A DNA stretch of 60,876 bases, filler included, from Hausera hauseri (Eukaryota), in the NCBI GenBank assembly GCA_046269625.1. It is 12 parts of 12 records of this genome, joined end to end, with 100 filler letters (N's around TTAATTAATTAA, not from the genome) between each part and the next. Parts side by side here need not be neighbours in the genome. Positions count along the whole stretch, not along the records: positions 5,926 to 11,069 come from JBJURY010322828.1; 11 more parts are not named here. One strand, given 5' to 3'. Below are positions 305 through 11,169 of the stretch, in pieces. The translations under genes were made by a program, and so were the position numbers. The notes beneath the pieces were generated by a model that ran no database searches, had not been told where the DNA came from, and was given only the letters and a program-made list of their open reading frames with translations. Numbering within the stretch: the stretch's first letter is position 1; every line of letters begins with the position of its first letter.

Positions 305-1195
305 TTACCAAAGGACGCCTTCACAGGATAAAATTTGTAGGACAAATATTCGCGACAACCAAAGAAGGGCAGAATCATAAATAGAGAAAAGGTAATACTG
401 CCAACAAGGACCAAAATAAAATGTTGAATACCATACCTTTGAATAATCCGAATTTCCCCACGATGTCATGTTTATCAAATCACTCACAAAATCTAGTAAA
501 GAAAAACTGAATACTCCACTAAATAGTTTACTATTCGACGGGTTATAATTAAACATAATTTTCATGTGACCTTTTGTTACAATGAAATTCCTAACTTTTA
601 CGGAATAGTTAAATAAGTTTATAATCTGTTCCGTCGGCATTCGGTTATTACCAACGATAGATTGAAATTTGGGTGGGAAACCACATAGCAGAAGTAGCTT
701 TTCTCTTTCAACTTGATTTTGGCAAATAACAAAATTTAGACACAATGTAAAAGGGGTACTGTAATCATTACTCGGTTTGTTTTCGACGAATCTTAGGGAT
801 CGGAATATGGTTTTAAAAAATGATTTAAGAAAGGTCGTGAACACGTAGTTGGATATCTTACATTGGATGGTATGAGTTAAGCGCTTATATAAATATATAG
901 TGAATCCAAAACTACGGTTGCGTCTATGTAAATAAGATTGAGATATTTCACTACTTACAAAACCGCGGGAAGGCGATGTTGTGACAGCACAATAATGAGC
1001 AAGGTAGTAGGTGAAAGGTGGGTAAAAAATATCATGAATAAAAAATGTAGAAAAATATTTGCCGAGCGTATATACAATGATTAATCCTACCTTGTCGTGT
1101 GTCAGTTTTGCGAAAGGACACCACGTAGAGATATCCATGTAGAGTGTAAATGGCCGTAGTTTCTCCAATTGTAATTCAGCTGCTATGTTTTGCAA
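305..1195 (-). CDS. Hypothetical 296-aa ORF, possibly the unrecognised C-terminal continuation of the DFCP1-like pseudogene
   Basis: Long open frame in AT-rich DNA on the same strand as the upstream DFCP1-like ORFs; no motif recognised and no FYVE R(R/K)HHCR motif. Confidence 0.3.
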   Translation of the reverse strand: MQNIAAELQLEKLRPFTLYMDISTWCPFAKLTHDKVGLIIVYTLGKYFSTFFIHDIFYPPFTYYLAHYCAVTTSPSRGFVSSEISQSYLHRRNRSFGFTIYLYKRLTHTIQCKISNYVFTTFLKSFFKTIFRSLRFVENKPSNDYSTPFTLCLNFVICQNQVEREKLLLLCGFPPKFQSIVGNNRMPTEQIINLFNYSVKVRNFIVTKGHMKIMFNYNPSNSKLFSGVFSFSLLDFVSDLINMTSWGNSDYSKVWYSTFYFGPCWQYYLFSIYDSALLWLSRIFVLQILSCEGVLW

Positions 1196-1569
1196 ACGTC
1201 GTGCTGTGTACCCGTTTTCCTTTTTCGTGTACTTTTGACCAGAACAAGCTCTACGGTAAGACGTTGGAACTCATCAAATTTCAATATTGTCTCGCCGTTT
1301 CACTAATAGATCTTTCTTGACGGTAAATAGTTCCTTTGATTCTCCGATAAACGAAATATCTGTTGTATTATCCGTAAGGTGTTTTTCGCAGTATAAATAT
1401 GATTCAACTGATGGAGCCGAATATTTGGAAAGCGTGCAAATTTTTTCTGTACAACAGACAATCGTCAGTGGCCTATAAACTTCTTCCCGACCATAACAAA
1501 ATCCCGATTGTTTCATAATCACGTCCAATAAATTTTGTAGTCCGGGTACAACTTCATCCAGGTTCTTCT

Positions 1570-2850
1570 TCAATTTTCGATTTTTTTACAAGGGTTTACA
1601 TTATAACCATCGATTAACTTTACACGAATGGGCGAGAATGATATCGGTATCGAATCAGATTTGTTGTATTTGATCTTTGGGCCAAATCGATTGAATAATG
1701 GCTGTTTATTCTGGCAGCAGCTGTATATCCTTAGGCCAGCAATCCGCGGAGCACGAATATTTAATTGATCAGTTTTTTCTTTTATCTGTCTATTGAACTT
1801 CTTATGATCAACGAGTTCCCCATTACCATCCTCCATTGGTTTACAACCAACATAAAATACATTAGAAAATCCGAACGGCTGATCAGGTTTAGCCTCACGA
1901 ATTGCGCCTAAAATGAACTTTTCGTTTAGTGTAAAATCTGTGTATTCAGCGGTATGAAAGAGCAAAAATGAGGAATTTAATATTTCCGCTTTACACTTAT
2001 ACTTATTAGCTTTCACTTCCAGTAGGACTTTAAAATATTTGTCAAATGCATATCGAGCGTAGGTAATAAGTTCGAATGTTTTATAATTCAAGCAGCTATC
2101 TCTAGTGCCTTACAGTACCAAATTGGGCAATGCAGTTATTTTCATAAGTAAACGCTTTTGAACATCGGGAGTTTTTGACTCGCCTTGTAAACCTTTAGTG
2201 TCAATAAGCATGTAGCATAGATTTCTGTCTTTCTCTCTCGTGACAGTCGTCCAAACTCCGATTGTGCGTCGATTCTGACTTGAATCAGTTACAAACACAT
2301 GATGTCCATTGAAAAACATGTAGTTCAATAGATGGGATTTACCATCTCCGGTACGTCCTATCACAGATATGACGTTGAGAATATCATTAGGTTTAACTTT
2401 CAATGATTGCGCCAAGTTGCCAGCTGATGTAAAATTAAAATGTTCATCTTCAATGAACAACTGTTGTGGGCTTGAATTAGATGAAAGATTAATTGTATTG
2501 TAACAGTCGTTATCGTCATCATCATTGTCTGCGTCCAATGCATTTAAGAAAATCTTCCCCGATTTAAAAAGTTTGTTATCGAATTCTTTGAAACCATTTA
2601 TACAGTATCTTCTATTACAAAAGGTACAAAATGCATCAGCGAGATTTGTCGATTTGCTTCGACAGTTAAATTCACAAACTTCTGAATCTTTTAAAGTTTT
2701 CAATTTTTTGTATTTGTGATTTGCATGAATCTTCAAACGATCTTGACAGAAGTAACATTTACGCTTATCGGTACAGATATATGATGCAATTCCATTGAAA
2801 TAGAGGTATTTGCTTTGACATGGGAATTTTGTAGGTCTTGCCGATCGTGG
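1570..2850 (-). pseudogene. ZFYVE1: ZFYVE1/DFCP1-like N-terminal Cys/His region plus P-loop NTPase domain, interrupted by a premature stop
   Basis: VISVIGRTGDGKSHLLNYMFFNG..VF..S....TIGVW and LIDTKGLQG..KRLLMKITALPNLVL, then after TAA at 2110 FELITYARYAFDKYF, FSNVFYVG, NIRAPR. Collinear with DFCP1 (SIFGNTGDGKSHTLNHTFF, VIDTEGLLG, RLLLKVLAISDLVI, FSSIHYKG, TRSPR). Confidence 0.8.
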
Positions 2851-2984
2851 TATAAAGCATGATGCCAAAAATATTAAGAATTCTTTCATTTCACATTCAG
2901 CGATAGTTATTGTACCTTTTAGAAATCTCGTCTGATTAAGTTTTAGATAACAAATCTGCATCAGCTGTACTCGGGAATATATAG

Positions 2985-4403
2985 CCACCACACCGAATTG
3001 TTGCGTTAAACCGCCACCATAAGCCATTGTTCTATTGACGGTATTCGTGATCAACTTTGAAATTTTCAGATCTAATAAACCCCATGAGAAATCTGGGGAA
3101 TTTTTGAACTCAATATTTCCCTTCTTTGTTATATCTGAATGAACATTTGCCTCTAACTGCATACTGAATTTGGTTTCTTTTCCTAATATCTTTTCCATAC
3201 TCGTATGCTCGTGAAATACTGAAAAAGTAACATCTGAACAAGGTGCTTCTTTATATGTGATTCTTAGTTTGCCTAATTTCGTTTTGGGCAATTTGTATTC
3301 AGTTCGAACTCTCTCAACAACAAATTCCAAATGTAAATTGCGCATTCCACCAATACCCATCGGATTAGGTTTTTCATCTTTATAAAAAATTAAACTCGGG
3401 TCTTCCTTTAGTAATTCTAAAAACGATTTCTCAAGCAACTCAATTTCCGAGAGTGAATAAGCCTTAATAGACGCAAAAACAACAAGTTGTGGAACGGGAA
3501 TTAAGTTAGAAACAATATCGTCAGATGATAATTGAGGCATATGTGTATCAATCAACACATCACCAATTACAGAATTTTTTAAGCCAGAGACGGCAACGAC
3601 ATTGCCAGAACAGGTTTCACAGATATCGGTAGAATGATCACTGGTCATTTGCATTATATTCTCCACCTTCTCATTTAGAGACCTCGTAATGTTCGTCACT
3701 TTCACATACGTTTTCAGTGTACCCGAATATAGTCGTAAAAGCGTTAATGGTCTGTGAAATTTATCATGAATAACTATAAACACCAAAGCACTTAAATAAT
3801 CAGGATGCGATACGATATTTTCAAATTGGTATGGAACTTTCGTTTCCATCGGTTCGGGGAGATAATCGACGATGGCATCTAACATGTTTGTAACTCCAAT
3901 GTTCATTCTGGTGCTACCAATCAAAACTGGCGATGCTTTACAAGATATAACAACCGTTCGTAATGCTTCGCGGATAAGTCTTTGGGAAATGAACAAAGCT
4001 GGATTATCCTGAAGTAGAAATTCGATTCGAATAGGACCGTCATCTAAATCTGCAAGCAGTCCAATCAATGTCAAATGAACCTCTAATGAAGGATTAAAAA
4101 GCGGATCTGTCTCATTTTGATTGCGAAAATAACTCTCTGTTAAGACACTTTTTGATGTTTGTTTGGGAAGATCCCAAAACTGCAAGTGAAAGTCCATAAC
4201 ATTGATAATTCCATTAAAAACTCCTGTTTTCTCACAAAATGTTTAAGATGAATAGGTAGAGGAATGATATTTGGTAATTTCTTCGAAACTGATAATAGAC
4301 TACTTTTGAAATCAGCCATCTTTCTGTCTAATTTGTTGGTGTAAAATATATTTGGCATTTTGTGCTTCTGACACCAAAATGTGGTTCTTCTTGTAAATAG
4401 CAA
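2985..4403 (-). pseudogene. GFM2: Mitochondrial EF-G2 / ribosome-releasing factor 2 fragment (late G domain to start of domain IV), frameshifted near 4190
   Basis: NKLDR (G4), LADLDD, PVLIGS..NIGV..MLDAIVDYLPEP, LSALVFIVIHDK..LRLYSGTLK, LLKEDPSL, GMRNLHLEFVVERVRTEY..LGKLRITYKE match EF-G/GFM2. G1-G3 motifs and domain V are absent. Confidence 0.85.
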
Positions 4404-5825: not shown

Positions 5826-5925
5826 NNNNNNNNNNNNNNNNNNNNNNNNNNNNNNNNNNNNNNNNNNNNTTAATTAATTAANNNNNNNNNNNNNNNNNNN
5901 NNNNNNNNNNNNNNNNNNNNNNNNN
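5826..5925. other. Artificial contig spacer N44-TTAATTAATTAA-N44 (also at 11070-11169, 15117-15216, 22485-22584, 26763-26862, 31351-31450, 37097-37196, 42559-42658, 46809-46908, 51246-51345, 55553-55652)
   Basis: Identical 100-bp N-flanked linker with stop codons in all six frames, found 11 times. Confidence 0.98.
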
Positions 5926-6851
5926 AATTTTCGTTTATGTATTCCATTAGTCATTCGCGCCTGTCGTTTTAATTTCGGTTTTTCTACTGATTGTTGTTGT
6001 TGTTGGACAGGTTCTATTTTCGGTTCCACCAGAGAGTTGACATTAGAATTGTTGTCACCAAGCACTTGTGACAAATCACAAGTCTCACCACCACAACCAC
6101 CACCATTGAGTATTATCGCTCTATCTTCGTCTGACATGCGTTTGCCACCAATAATTCTCCCTCGCCGTTTTAATATCGGTTTTACTGCTACTAATTGTTG
6201 GACAGGTTTCGGTTCCAGACAGTTGACATTGTCCTTCTTGTCACTAAACAGCCATGACCAATCTGTACTTTCGTCATTGTTGTTGTTGAGCAGAATTGTA
6301 TTATCGTCGTTTTCCATTATCGTATTAATGTCTGAATGCAAATCAGAATGATATTTATAGTTCATTGGACAGAGTACAGTACTTTGATTCAGTAAAACAC
6401 TTATGTGGTGTTTAATTTGATTAATAATCGACTCGTAGTTGATTGACCGAATCCCCAATACGACAATTTTTCCACTGCTAAACACATTGACACACAGCGG
6501 ACGGAATAGTGTTAGTCGCAGTGCAGGAAACAGTTCGGGCTCATAAATACATTCGGTAGCCATTGATAATTTGTGTAGATTAATTGATGGTGGTGGTGGT
6601 GGTGGTGAGCAATCTAACTGAGCCGTTACCGTTATTGATTGAATTTGGTCAATGACAATTCCGAATGGTAGATGTCTGTCATTTGTGATTGGTTTGCGAC
6701 AACCCATAATACGACACTTTTCCGATGGAAATATGATGCTTGTAATATTCGGTTGACATTTGTGGACATAATTCCTCGGCTTCCAATGATTAAACGGCAG
6801 TGCATTAATACACTCGGTAACATGTCCGCGGTAGTTGATATGGGCTATCAT
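5926..6851 (-). CDS. Compact TATA-binding protein-like ORF (first ~155 aa) with a low-complexity, internally repeated C-terminal extension; runs off the contig
   Basis: Two TBP repeats: IIFPSEKCRIMG and IQSITVT..INLHKL..YEPELFPALRL..VNVFSSGKIVVLG (cf. YEPELFPGLIYR..LIFVSGKVVLTG). Confidence 0.8.
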
Positions 6852-6940
6852 GATTGATTGATTAATTGAAACAGTGTTTATGCTGCGCCTATTTATGTGT
6901 GATTATAAACAAAATGTATGATAAATGCATCAACAACAAC

Positions 6941-7600
6941 ATGAAGCTACAGAATAATGCCATTTTCCAGATTGTAGGCCCCAGTGGAAGTGGCAAAACG
7001 CACTTTGTTTGCAAATTGCTGCAGAACTACCGTGACATATTCCAATCGCCGCTGTTCAATCACATTTACTGGCATCTGGGCAGTGGTCATGATGGAGAGT
7101 CTAGCCTGACTCTACGGGAATTTTGTAAATAAAAACCCGTAACGATAATAGATGGGTTTGATGATAACTGGACCAGACGATTACGCTACCGTGACGTTAT
7201 TGTCATTGACGATTTATTTCAAGAGGCAACGAAACAATCGGATTTCATCAACCTGTTCACGAAGATTGCACGGCACCGTGGCGTAACGGTAATTTTCATT
7301 ACACAAAACATGTTCCATCAGGGCAGCCAGCACCGAAAACGAAATCTCAACGTACACTATTTGGTGTTGTTCAAAAACCCCCGTGATCAAACCGCGAAAT
7401 ATTACGTTGCGCGAAGGCATTTCCTCACAACCGAGCCTACTTGATAGATGCATATCATGATGCTACGATCGAGTCACCGGGATACTTTTTCACCGACTTT
7501 ACGCAACAGTGTCCCGATAATATACGTGTACGAACAGATATTTTCAATCAGAAAGATGTATGTGTCTATAAACAAATTCGAAAATCGACATTATTATGAT
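6941..7600 (+). pseudogene. A32-like FtsK/HerA genome-packaging ATPase
   Basis: Walker A IVGPSGSGKT; after a premature TAA at 7130, Walker B VIVIDDL, LFTKIARHRGVTVIFITQN and LNVHYLVLFKNPRD. Confidence 0.9.
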
Positions 7601-7811
7601 AAAAAGTGAAGAATTTCCGAGAAACGATTGTTAAACGTAAACCTACCAAGCGAGTTCCCGGCAAGAAACGTGTATCAAAACGAACTGCTACAGTCAAGCG
7701 ATTAATCAATTATATGCTTCGAGCAGCAGCAGCAGCAACTAGACGCAAATTACCGTCACAGTGGCAACGGTTATAAACAACTACGTTTCATCAGCATCAA
7801 TACGTCCAAAA

Positions 7812-8132
7812 ATGCGATTCAAACGTAGTCATCTGTACTTTATTGCTTTGCTCAAGGCACCTTCGAGACATAAGCGAAACATGCTGCGATCATTTCTACA
7901 ATTTATAGTAGACGATTTAATGAAAGTTTTATACAATATCGCTGTGGATCAAGTTGACCATTGGTAATGGAAAGCGGAATTTACTAAAGTATCAAAAATG
8001 ACTCATGGGCCTTGCCAATGCCCGTAGTAAACGATTGAAATGAGAGGTCATGTACCAGCAAGATGGTGGATTCCTTGGTGCAATTCTACCGATTGTCACG
8101 TCATTACTGGGTGGAGAACAATATAAACAATG
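7812..8132 (+). pseudogene. Polinton conserved small basic protein with C-terminal pX/Mu-like motif
   Basis: ALLKAPSRHKRNML...VLYNI, ending in QQDGGFLGAILPIVTSLLGG (about 8057-8116), resembling the GGFLPAL adenain-cleavage/amphipathic motif; frameshifted. Confidence 0.7.
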
Positions 8133-8262
8133 ACTAAGTATATGATGATTCGGCGATATGGGTGCATGGTTTTCATCATTTTACCCAGTTTACCGAATCT
8201 TTTATTTACGTTTCGTTCTAATTGCTGTAATGCTAACAAAAACGGCATTATCGACAACAACG

Positions 8263-8639
8263 ATGGGCGACGTGTGGTTCGATCCGCGTCATCCCTTCGG
8301 GTATACTAGTGTCGACGAACTGGCAAAGACTCTCAAACAGACTCGGCGACAAACCCAACGTTGGCTGGAGCAACAGTTAGCATACAGCCTAAACAAACCG
8401 ATAAGAAGGCCGTTTCCAACTCGTGCATACCGTGGTGCAGGTGTAAACAATGTATGGCAAATGTATCTAATGAATATGATTCCGTACGCCAGCATCAACG
8501 GTGGGTATCGGTACGTGCTGACATATATCGTATTCAGGAAATTCTACGTTCATGTGTCAAGGGTTCGAATAAACAATATCTCGTCAAGTGGCACGGATAC
8601 ACTGCACCGAGTTGGATTTTTGCATCACAAATTCAATGA
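8263..8639 (+). pseudogene. Polinton retroviral-like integrase: N-terminus joined directly to the C-terminal chromodomain (catalytic core deleted)
   Basis: WFDPRHPFGY..WLEQQLAYSLNKPIRRPFP..WQMYLMNM..NGGYRYVLTYI, then in another frame YRIQEILR..KQYLVKWHGY..SWI (chromodomain). Confidence 0.85.
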
Positions 8640-9694
8640 GAAGCAGCATTCACTCTGTCTTTGATAGTAACAGATCATTATCACAATATGATGACAATGA
8701 CAATAGCACTAAACAGTTTACCATGCACTTGGACCAACCGGTCGATTTACGCCAGGACGCCTGGGAAGTGGCTTTGACGGAATTCACATTTACATTTTCA
8801 CCAATGACAATACGTCAGAACAGTGGTATTTACTTTACTCGACAAGAAACGTACCCTATTTCAAGTCCTTTGCGGACAATCCGACAAAATATCTGATATA
8901 CTCTTCGCAATTATTCGCCAGAAAATTTCTCGATTTATGTTTATTTTCCAAACTATTGTATGAAACTAATGCATAGAAATCCCTTTGAAATGCAGTTTAA
9001 ATATGTAGCTGATGCTCAGGCATGGGGTTTTTAATCAATCAATGTACACTCAACGTCTACGGCTAGGTGGACATGTTATAATTGGTGAAAAATTGGACCT
9101 TTCTTCCGATGCGTAATCCGATATTATAGTAAAGTGGACTAGTCACAATCAGTCTCCCGCTCATATATTATATCACATGATTTATTAATGGAAACGGAAC
9201 TGGAATTGTGTTAATACGTCAGGAAAACGGCTACATTAACCGTAAAGACATGTGAAATAAACGCAGATGGTCATATTTCGATTATACGACATGATAGTGT
9301 TACATAATTTGCCTTTTGTGTATCATTTCCCGGAGTCTGGGTTTTTCAAAATGCGAATTCTATCAAAACATTTTGGTGGATCTATTGTTGCTAAATACAA
9401 ACCATAACTCTGGAGCATTTCATAGCATCAACATTTTAACGGACTTAACCCAATCCGTACTCGTTAGTGGAGAACGTAAACAACTACTGGATTTTATCGA
9501 ACTGGATTCTGACACGTTCAAAACATCGGGTGAAACTTTTCACGTTAATATGCTCAGACCCATGTACTTATCATTGTATCACTATTGTGCACAGTATTTC
9601 CGTGTATATGCTTGATGAATTTTGGGAACCCATTAAATTTCTTTTCGGGTCAACGATACATTGGACGTTACATTTTCGACTTCGTCGATTATAA
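8636..9694 (+). pseudogene. Penton-like minor capsid protein, copy 1
   Basis: N-terminal SNRSLSQY..N...FTMHLDQPVDL..WEVALTEF; C-terminal INILTDLTQSVLVSGERKQLL..PMYLSL..ISVYMLDEF.EPIKF..TLHFR, typical of the Polinton minor capsid. Confidence 0.75.
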
Positions 9695-9739
9695 ACAAAC
9701 TGCGTCATCACCATCATCATCATCATCATCATCGAGATC

Positions 9740-10780
9740 ATGAGTATTTACATGGTGTTGCCGAGCAACAGTCGTCTGAAAACTCGTTCGAACAATTCAG
9801 CCAGTGAAAACGTTGTAGATTGGAACAATTAGATTTATCTGGAAAATGGGAGGTTGCACTGACGGAATTTAACTTTCCCTAGGCACCGGTGACATTGAAA
9901 TGTAGAATGAAAATAACGCTCAATAAGACTGTTACTGAAACCAAAACACATTCTTGTCCTCTGACACTTGCTGACAATAAAATAACATTTGGAGAATCGG
10001 CAATTTGCACGACCGAAGCAAATTACGGTTCACACGGCAAAATAGGTATTTTTATTTTAGATCAAAACTTACATTTTATGACAGATTTTGAATTTACTGT
10101 TACCTTTCCGTCCTCTGAGACGGCGCAGAAATTTGGATTCAAAAGTACAGAGTACAAAGGTAAACATATTAAAAGTGAATATGTAGTTGGTCCAAGATTA
10201 AGTTCCGTATATTACCAGACAACGGTGAAATACAGCAGAAAGGGTATCAGCGTCATACATATCGATTGGTGATAATATCTATTTCGAATATTTAGCACAT
10301 CTCTGTCAACACTTCTTCAAATCAAAAGTACAAGGAGATATTTAAAGTTTTCGAGTCAGATACAAATGGGTACATTAAATTTGAACTGCCTAAGGGTCTT
10401 GTCGACATTTCATTGGACAAAGCTTTGCCCATGGTATTGGGTTTCGAAAAACAGTGGTTTGAGGCGTCGACGGCGGCGGTGGCACATGTTGCAACACTTA
10501 AACCAAAACTGAAAACTGGATTAAATCAAATATACATTTAGGTGCACGTCGCCGAACCGATTTTGCTTGGTGGACTACGTGTACCGGTACTCCGTGCAAT
10601 TTATCCGGAAAGCAGCAAGTATACTGCTTGCGACAATGTCACTATGGCATCTACATCTATAAAAAATGTTAAAGTGAATATCTGATGTGGCGCTGCTACC
10701 TTATTGAATTTCTGTACGGTACCACAACCAGTCTAATTCTTCATTTCCGTCGAATCCTACAACAACAACAACATGATTGA
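9740..10780 (+). pseudogene. Penton-like minor capsid protein, copy 2
   Basis: MSIYMVLPSNS...LDLSGKWEVALTEFNFP; C-terminal HVAEPILLGGLRVPVLRAI and IEFLYGTTTSLILHFRR. Confidence 0.75.
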
Positions 10781-10955
10781 TTCTGAAATCGTTTCCATTT
10801 ACAATAAACTGCAGCAGGGCGGTAAACTGCCGCATTTCGTTGGTAAACAGTATGGCTCTGGATGGTTGCGTACATTGGCACATTTAACATTTTCGGTGTT
10901 GAAGCATATTGGAGCCGTGGCAGCAAAAAACAGCACAGGACGTACTCTATGAAAA
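10774..10955 (+). pseudogene. Small Polinton protein with QQGG / QYGSG + amphipathic motif (pVI-like membrane-active candidate)
   Basis: MIDSEIVSIYNKLQQGGKLPHFVGKQYGSGWLRTLAHLTFSVLKHIG, matching the QxGxG-amphipathic-helix ORF usually found between minor and major capsid genes. Confidence 0.6.
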
Positions 10956-11169
10956 CAAATCGATTTTACCATCATTGAAGGTACATGCCTTGTGAGAAAT
11001 AAAAAGCGATGCACCGGGAGTTGTTGAATCAGTCAGAAAACAATTAGCTGTCAATGGCTTGATCAGAAANNNNNNNNNNNNNNNNNNNNNNNNNNNNNNN
11101 NNNNNNNNNNNNNTTAATTAATTAANNNNNNNNNNNNNNNNNNNNNNNNNNNNNNNNNNNNNNNNNNNN

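Follow-up and report, generated by a model that had tools for sequence, protein, structure and literature searches.

What is a gene resembling the one for TATA-binding protein (TBP) doing inside a Polinton, and is it a working part of the element or a stray copy of a host gene? This question is raised by 60,876 nucleotides of Hausera hauseri DNA (the window, meaning the whole stretch that was analysed), and it bears on the control of Polinton virion genes with or without a helper virus. The gene proves to encode a genuine and conserved TBP variant that belongs to the element, and a promoter signature matches it. Judged by the type of element, the host, a eukaryote, is probably an animal.

The window consists of 12 separate contigs placed end to end, with N44-TTAATTAATTAA-N44 linkers at 5826-5925, at 11070-11169 and at nine more places, and since these linkers join separate contigs, neighbourhood across them is meaningless. 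All 30 bins of the stretch are covered by contigs that come from four runs, each of a different coded organism. Two other regions can be mentioned here. On a separate contig, positions 305-4242 (minus strand) hold long open frames in which EF-G domains and a GBP-like GTPase are matched within a single frame, with a MEIOB OB fold nearby, and that contig looks like a patchwork of captured host-gene pieces; the contig at 26863-31350, where strand bias is extreme (AT skew ~0.85) and open frames are very long, is probably a tandem or satellite array.

The element lies on the contig at 5926-11069, which carries the TBP-like gene together with broken ATPase, protein-X-like, integrase, two penton-like and cupiennin-like genes. 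The TBP-like domain (aa 1-156) occupies 6384..6851 on the minus strand, and a divergent spacer of 89 nt (6852..6940), bridged by contigs of other runs, among them X2 record 10 across 6787-7026, separates it from an A32-like packaging ATPase at 6941..7599 on the plus strand. This ATPase is 55-66% identical to those of loci L014, L029, L034 and L041, and is broken by a stop at 7130-7132 and a frame change near 7414-7423. On the same strand, a small decayed basic ORF is followed by a broken protein-X-like gene within 7772..8100 (ATG at 7812), whose label comes from a weak match in a relative (Adeno_PX, E 0.011), and by the region 8122..8636, with a small ORF starting MG (8158) and an integrase with a chromodomain (Chromo, E 2.5e-4), from which ~200 codons have been deleted internally; its relative in L014 matches rve at E 1.2e-12. 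Two decayed penton/minor-capsid-like genes, with ATGs at 8636 and 9740, then fill 8568..10753 (+), behind ATAAACA sites at 8568 and 9690. The penton label is one that we presume, rather than one given by a Pfam match. Capsid labels in general are likewise our own assumption, or follow gene order as in PMC8502044, and do not come from Pfam. A small gene at 10773..11049 (+), which in relatives precedes the major capsid gene, is called cupiennin-like by its place in the gene order, under a name found in the accessible part of PMC8502044. The contig ends inside the element, before any capsid gene, and pPolB, major capsid protein and protease are absent from it; a decayed protein-primed PolB on the next contig (11170..15116, +), is 22-39% identical to the PolBs of TBP-bearing loci, and no link between it and the contig of the TBP-like gene was found.

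The preliminary description is thus confirmed in part. Its Polinton/adintovirus-like context stands, with ATPase, rve integrase and penton-like genes sharing one contig, and so does its statement that the neighbouring genes are disrupted. Two other observations in it are correct and carry no weight as evidence. The TBP-like gene and the ATPase are indeed divergent in the window, but among the 24 loci holding both genes none has them directly head-to-head: in 11 they are adjacent and co-directional, in nine co-directional with genes between, in two divergent (gaps of 358 and 1649 nt), in one in reversed order and in one convergent, the position of the TBP-like gene differing between subgroups. 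Likewise, its stop-free run of 155 codons is clean, but unremarkable, because by our own arithmetic the ATPase has only two lesions in ~210 codons.

The assignment to TBP is confirmed by a Pfam match (PF00352) of 43.7 bits, against a curated cut-off of 22.9 (E 2.5e-11), and by a structure model with the two-lobe saddle fold. Identity to human TBP is 19-20%, whereas it reaches 74% to an element-type relative. Two peculiarities of the window copy, a poly-Pro insertion (about aa 82-88) that its relatives lack and departures from the family at positions 4 and 44, make it probable that this copy is decaying together with its neighbours, as a decayed member, probably, of a multi-copy family. Its frame continues for ~150 codons to the contig edge (5926..6383, minus strand), although likeness to relatives stops near aa 166. 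Taking into account that the closest relatives end at 149-160 aa, these codons probably represent a second, separate ORF, for which there is an ATG at 6317 with its own TATAAATA 42 nt upstream (6352-6359); no homologue of the tail was found. Family members P0112, P0120, P0127 and P0146 also carry low-complexity C-terminal tails (223-275 aa), so that a run-on may be natural in some lineages.

Beyond the window, 107 of 125 candidates matched at E ≤ 0.001, all of them with a TBP domain, most 144-170 aa long and the best 74% identical. A profile search gave 63 cluster representatives at E ≤ 1e-30, the 3463 profile matches at E ≤ 0.001 including cellular TBPs. A metagenome scan yielded 80 loci, 74 of which were kept after dropping six weak matches limited to the C-lobe (L076-L081). 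A Polinton hallmark gene accompanies the TBP-like gene in 34 of the 74, accessory genes shared with such loci in 35 (one cluster of these being linked only via the gene cluster c4), and five are too short; L014 and L029 have pPolB, ATPase, integrase, capsid and protease together with it. The family is under purifying selection, with a median dN/dS of 0.185 and a maximum of 0.423 over 37 non-independent pairs of 50 genes. In a C-lobe tree of 38 rows, from which three further rows had been dropped for lack of an anchor, 24 family rows lie on one side of a 100/98 branch and 14 cellular-type and giant-virus-type rows, so labelled mostly by our own reading, on the other. The phylogeny proposed in the preliminary description therefore sets the family apart, but these 38 rows pick out no donor lineage.

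Some neighbours deserve a mention in their own right. Clusters c2, c18 and c19 (e.g., L053:943-1794) are conserved unnamed genes beside the TBP-like gene, with a weak lead to single-stranded DNA-binding proteins; c18 and c19 lie mostly behind ordinary TATA boxes, and c8 and c2 resemble a pair of exons belonging to a single spliced gene. Cluster c4 (e.g., L039:56-646) is a conserved gene after the protease that has no Pfam match and whose acidic N-terminal pattern we take to resemble that of DEDD exonucleases. Accessory genes of L029, L041, L059, L006, L069 and L032 include a ubiquitin-conjugating enzyme, RING fingers, a dual-specificity phosphatase, KilA-N and leucine-rich repeats.

The promoter signature is a short word, ATAAAC, found upstream of nearly every ATPase and of most other core genes among the upstream regions listed. 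Among 85 distinct 100-nt regions upstream of ATPase, pX, integrase, penton, cupiennin-like, capsid and protease genes (three rows with wrong starts being left out), 68 contain ATAAAC[A/G], against a mean of 4.4 and a maximum of 11 in shuffled sequence, and one on the reverse strand; gene starts were chosen automatically, some wrongly, and the loci are related, so that the shuffles overstate significance. The preceding base is T in 79 and C in 36 of 125 sites. A named gene starts 20-130 nt downstream of 122 of the 212 distinct YATAAACR sites, and for 64 of these the distance is 30-39 nt, a spacing resembling that of the ordinary TATA boxes of the TBP-like gene. Before this gene the picture is reversed: of 48 regions, three carry the virion-gene motif and 21 have TATAWAWR (shuffle mean 6.1, maximum 12), the latter word being missing from the other 27; an accessory-gene group, picked after the data were seen, behaves likewise (3 and 21 of 35). 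Upstream sequences thus show two promoter-like classes: ordinary TATA words before the TBP-like and some accessory genes, and YATAAACR before virion genes and the integrase.

In the window contig there are seven plus-strand sites, where 1.8 are expected; for five of them the ATG of a gene, recognisable or decayed, follows after 29-50 nt, for a sixth the distance is 68 nt, and the seventh precedes no gene that was recognised. TATAAACA is found at 6904..6911, 37 nt before the ATPase ATG, at 7567..7574, 29 nt before the small basic ORF, at 7772, 40 nt before the protein-X-like gene, and at 8122, 36 nt before the small MG ORF. The candidate promoter words of the TBP-like gene itself (6875..6897, minus strand) are CATAAATA, 46 nt before its ATG, and CATAAACA, 31 nt before it, the latter being the virion-gene motif, unusual for this gene.

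Co-occurrence of gene and motif was followed in an ATPase-only scan that gave five loci (L082-L086, L086 being too distant). In L082 a TBP-like gene is present (E 1e-39) and 5 of 7 genes have the motif upstream, while in the partial contigs L083-L085 no TBP-like gene was found and the motif stands before 0 of 16 starts tested, one of them misplaced. The direction fits, in three incomplete contigs, two of one assembly, whose 51-56% GC (44% in L082) and missing sequence confound the comparison. In L084 and L085, TATAAG/TATAAAG followed by AC precedes several genes in place of YATAAACA. All five loci are filed under bacterial genome bins while holding Polinton-type genes, and are probably eukaryotic or viral contamination of those bins.

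Does the protein look able to read such a word? Residues are given in yeast numbering from Table 1 of PMC12529657, anchored by structural range (model residue 1 being yeast 66) and by eye against a plant-type TBP. The equivalents of the intercalating F116, F190 and F207 are Phe in 53 of 53 sequences, and the TFIIB-contact glutamates are kept almost throughout (E104 in 77 and E106 in 78 of 78), the TFIIB role of this C-lobe pair being described in the accessible part of PMC7221094. The position of F99 has no conserved Phe (Lys in 58 of 78 in A1), in an N-lobe mapping made by eye and uncertain by one residue; a Phe at position 20, conserved in 43 of 53, might stand in for it. Checking of these residues, suggested in the preliminary description, thus finds three Phe and both glutamates kept, but not the fourth Phe. 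N69 (51/53) and P191 (46/53) are mostly maintained, while at V71, V122, T124, N159 and L205 the family has Asn, Arg, Met, Ser and Asn instead, all near-invariant. The structure model has no helix of at least four residues before residue 92, so that the N-lobe is without its two helices, which in canonical TBP go with a basic surface that binds regulators; a longer subgroup (L061, L082, ~165 aa) seems by sequence to keep them.

In a bound TBP, the N-lobe faces the 3' half of the TATA box. The protein would therefore turn its most altered part to the very base where motif and host consensus differ. In eukaryotes the consensus is YWTAWADN, which does not admit C at position 7, and step 7/8 is where the second pair of Phe inserts (PMC1935006). 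A viral reader is not indispensable, since a crystal structure of wild-type TBP on a C(-25) variant (PDB 1qn3, by its title) indicates that host TBP can bind a C-at-7 box.

From these sequence patterns we infer binding to YATAAACR, timing and activation by the TBP-like protein, and consider it rather probable that an element-specific TBP is the early-to-late switch of a Polinton/adintovirus subgroup, 'early' and 'late' being assigned by gene type and not by timing. The TBP-like gene would be transcribed first, by host TBP/TFIID, from an ordinary TATA box. Its product would then bind YATAAACR in the minor groove, the polar N-lobe face reading the 3' half with its C at position 7, and host TFIIB, hence Pol II, would be recruited via the kept Glu-Pro-Glu stirrup to virion and integrase genes. 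The reduced N-lobe may also escape the host regulators that bind that lobe (Mot1/BTAF1, NC2, TAF1, TFIIA, Brf1), a step that would not be family-wide, because the longer subgroup seems to keep its helices. More tentatively, at slightly under even chances, a TBP of ~150 aa may alone redirect host TFIIB and Pol II to YATAAACA promoters, as part of a self-encoded two-phase programme; it would then be smaller than any viral promoter-specificity factor so far described. The preliminary description had already suggested a viral TBP factor tied to morphogenesis genes, as a basal factor or a decoy; the conserved family, its purifying selection, its ~20% identity to cellular TBP and the shared motif uphold the tie, while the evidence from sequence leans to a sequence-specific promoter reader.

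A decoy is nevertheless the strongest of the alternatives, although unlikely. The motif would then be a weak TATA box read by host TBP, and the element protein a competitor that titrates TFIIB or occupies TATA boxes, damping host or early genes; the almost invariant glutamates, the lost intercalating Phe position and the 1qn3 complex agree with it. Yet a pure TFIIB sponge needs no invariant new polar residues across its DNA face, reading by host TBP does not explain why position 7 is almost always C in front of so many genes of unrelated kinds, and motif and gene co-occur in the small control. Less likely again, the motif is read with element-encoded partners, either a herpes-like complex or a hidden TFIIB analogue, and not through host TFIIB alone. 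As described in the accessible parts of PMC7221094 and PMC12529657, most viruses with a TBP, including those with a Nucleocytoviricota one, encode their own TFIIB, and herpesvirus vTBP requires five partners; several conserved neighbours have no family assignment, and a bare N-lobe could serve as a partner surface. Against this, no accessory cluster common to all subgroups was found, none of 48 ORFs of partial Polinton elements (incomplete contigs) matched TFIIB, and the glutamates resemble those of the host, whereas in viruses that encode a TFIIB themselves the first one shows only ~40% conservation (PMC7221094, same part).

A role outside Pol II transcription, such as Pol III/Brf recruitment or binding of AT-rich termini in replication or packaging, with the motif read by something else, is very improbable: the same glutamate also contacts Brf1/Brf2 (PMC7221094, same part) and the gene is often near the ATPase, co-directional and upstream in 20 of 24 loci, but the motif lies ahead of protein-coding genes, spaced as a Pol II TATA box would be, and the position of the TBP-like gene varies. 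Still harder to sustain is a polyadenylation or termination signal (a TATAAA/CATAAA variant) unrelated to the TBP-like gene. Many sites are indeed close to the upstream gene's stop codon; they are, however, inside coding sequence, 73-115 nt before the stop (six penton sites at exactly 100 nt, capsid sites at 73-82 nt), their spacing is fixed to the downstream ATG, and the window site at 6904 has no gene end upstream on its strand. Finally, a recent retrocopy of host TBP/TRF, a functionless passenger, would be intronless, as this gene is. That reading is refuted by the low host identity set against the much closer element-type relative, by copies at many loci and in four runs, and by family-wide purifying selection; the near-identity to host TBP and absence from other copies that the preliminary description named as its contrary case are both contradicted. 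The promoter reader thus remains the preferred reading.

If the TBP of ~150 aa does act alone, this would account for the way in which integrated Polintons hold their capsid genes silent and activate them with no giant virus as helper, and protein and word would form a compact orthogonal TBP-promoter pair. The promoter reading, if right, would be a natural experiment in re-specifying the TBP DNA face, and the herpesvirus strategy would have arisen a second time independently, as a minimal version that works through TFIIB and not round it. In any case, a conserved TBP-like gene and an eight-base motif can be tested without any virus, and the motif helps to place gene starts in these elements.

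Among known systems, adintoviruses, Polintons and Mavericks have the same gene set and order in the accessible part of PMC8502044: ATPase, pX, integrase, penton, cupiennin-like, capsid, protease, pPolB. In that part of Starrett et al. 2021 (preprint 10.1101/697771), the sole mention of 'TBP' is in a figure legend, the text searched offers no analysis of it, the Fig. S2 labels show no TBP and the promoter motif was not found; the label may name this family. The other Polinton papers searched name no TBP or TATA box in their main text, and in the literature covered, which leaves subscription journals and Repbase outside, no account of this Polinton gene or motif was found.

Cellular TBP and its paralogues (PF00352) share the two-lobe saddle, the C-lobe signature, the TFIIB glutamates and three intercalating Phe, at 18-26% identity; the family differs by its helix-less N-lobe (this subgroup), its invariant polar DNA-face substitutions and the lack of a conserved Phe at F99. 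Nucleocytoviricota, which mostly carry their own RNA polymerase, have TBP-like proteins with a shared virus-encoded fold and an N-lobe diverged from host regulator contacts. These are the top BFVD matches, but at 8-19% identity, and the giant-virus-type sequences sampled lie across the supported branch.

The closest likeness in mode of action is apparently to herpesvirus vTBP (KSHV ORF24, EBV BcRF1, HCMV UL87), as far as the accessible part of PMC12529657 describes it: a nuclear DNA virus without an RNA polymerase of its own, a polar-faced TBP fold and a non-standard word before virion genes, the last two being present in the Polinton family. The two have polar changes in common at V122 and L205, and BcRF1 gives a weak fold match (E 0.016). 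The differences are equally clear, since vTBP has ~750 aa against ~150, four Phe against three, and a late word TATTWAA/TATT against YATAAAC; ORF24, in that part of the source, lacks the TFIIB glutamates, both of which the Polinton family keeps, while the family has no Pol II-binding N-terminal or C-terminal DNA domain, and no partner complex like that of vTBP was found for it. In sum, the family is one that works like herpesvirus vTBP without being a member, with a fifth of its size, the glutamates kept and another word to read.
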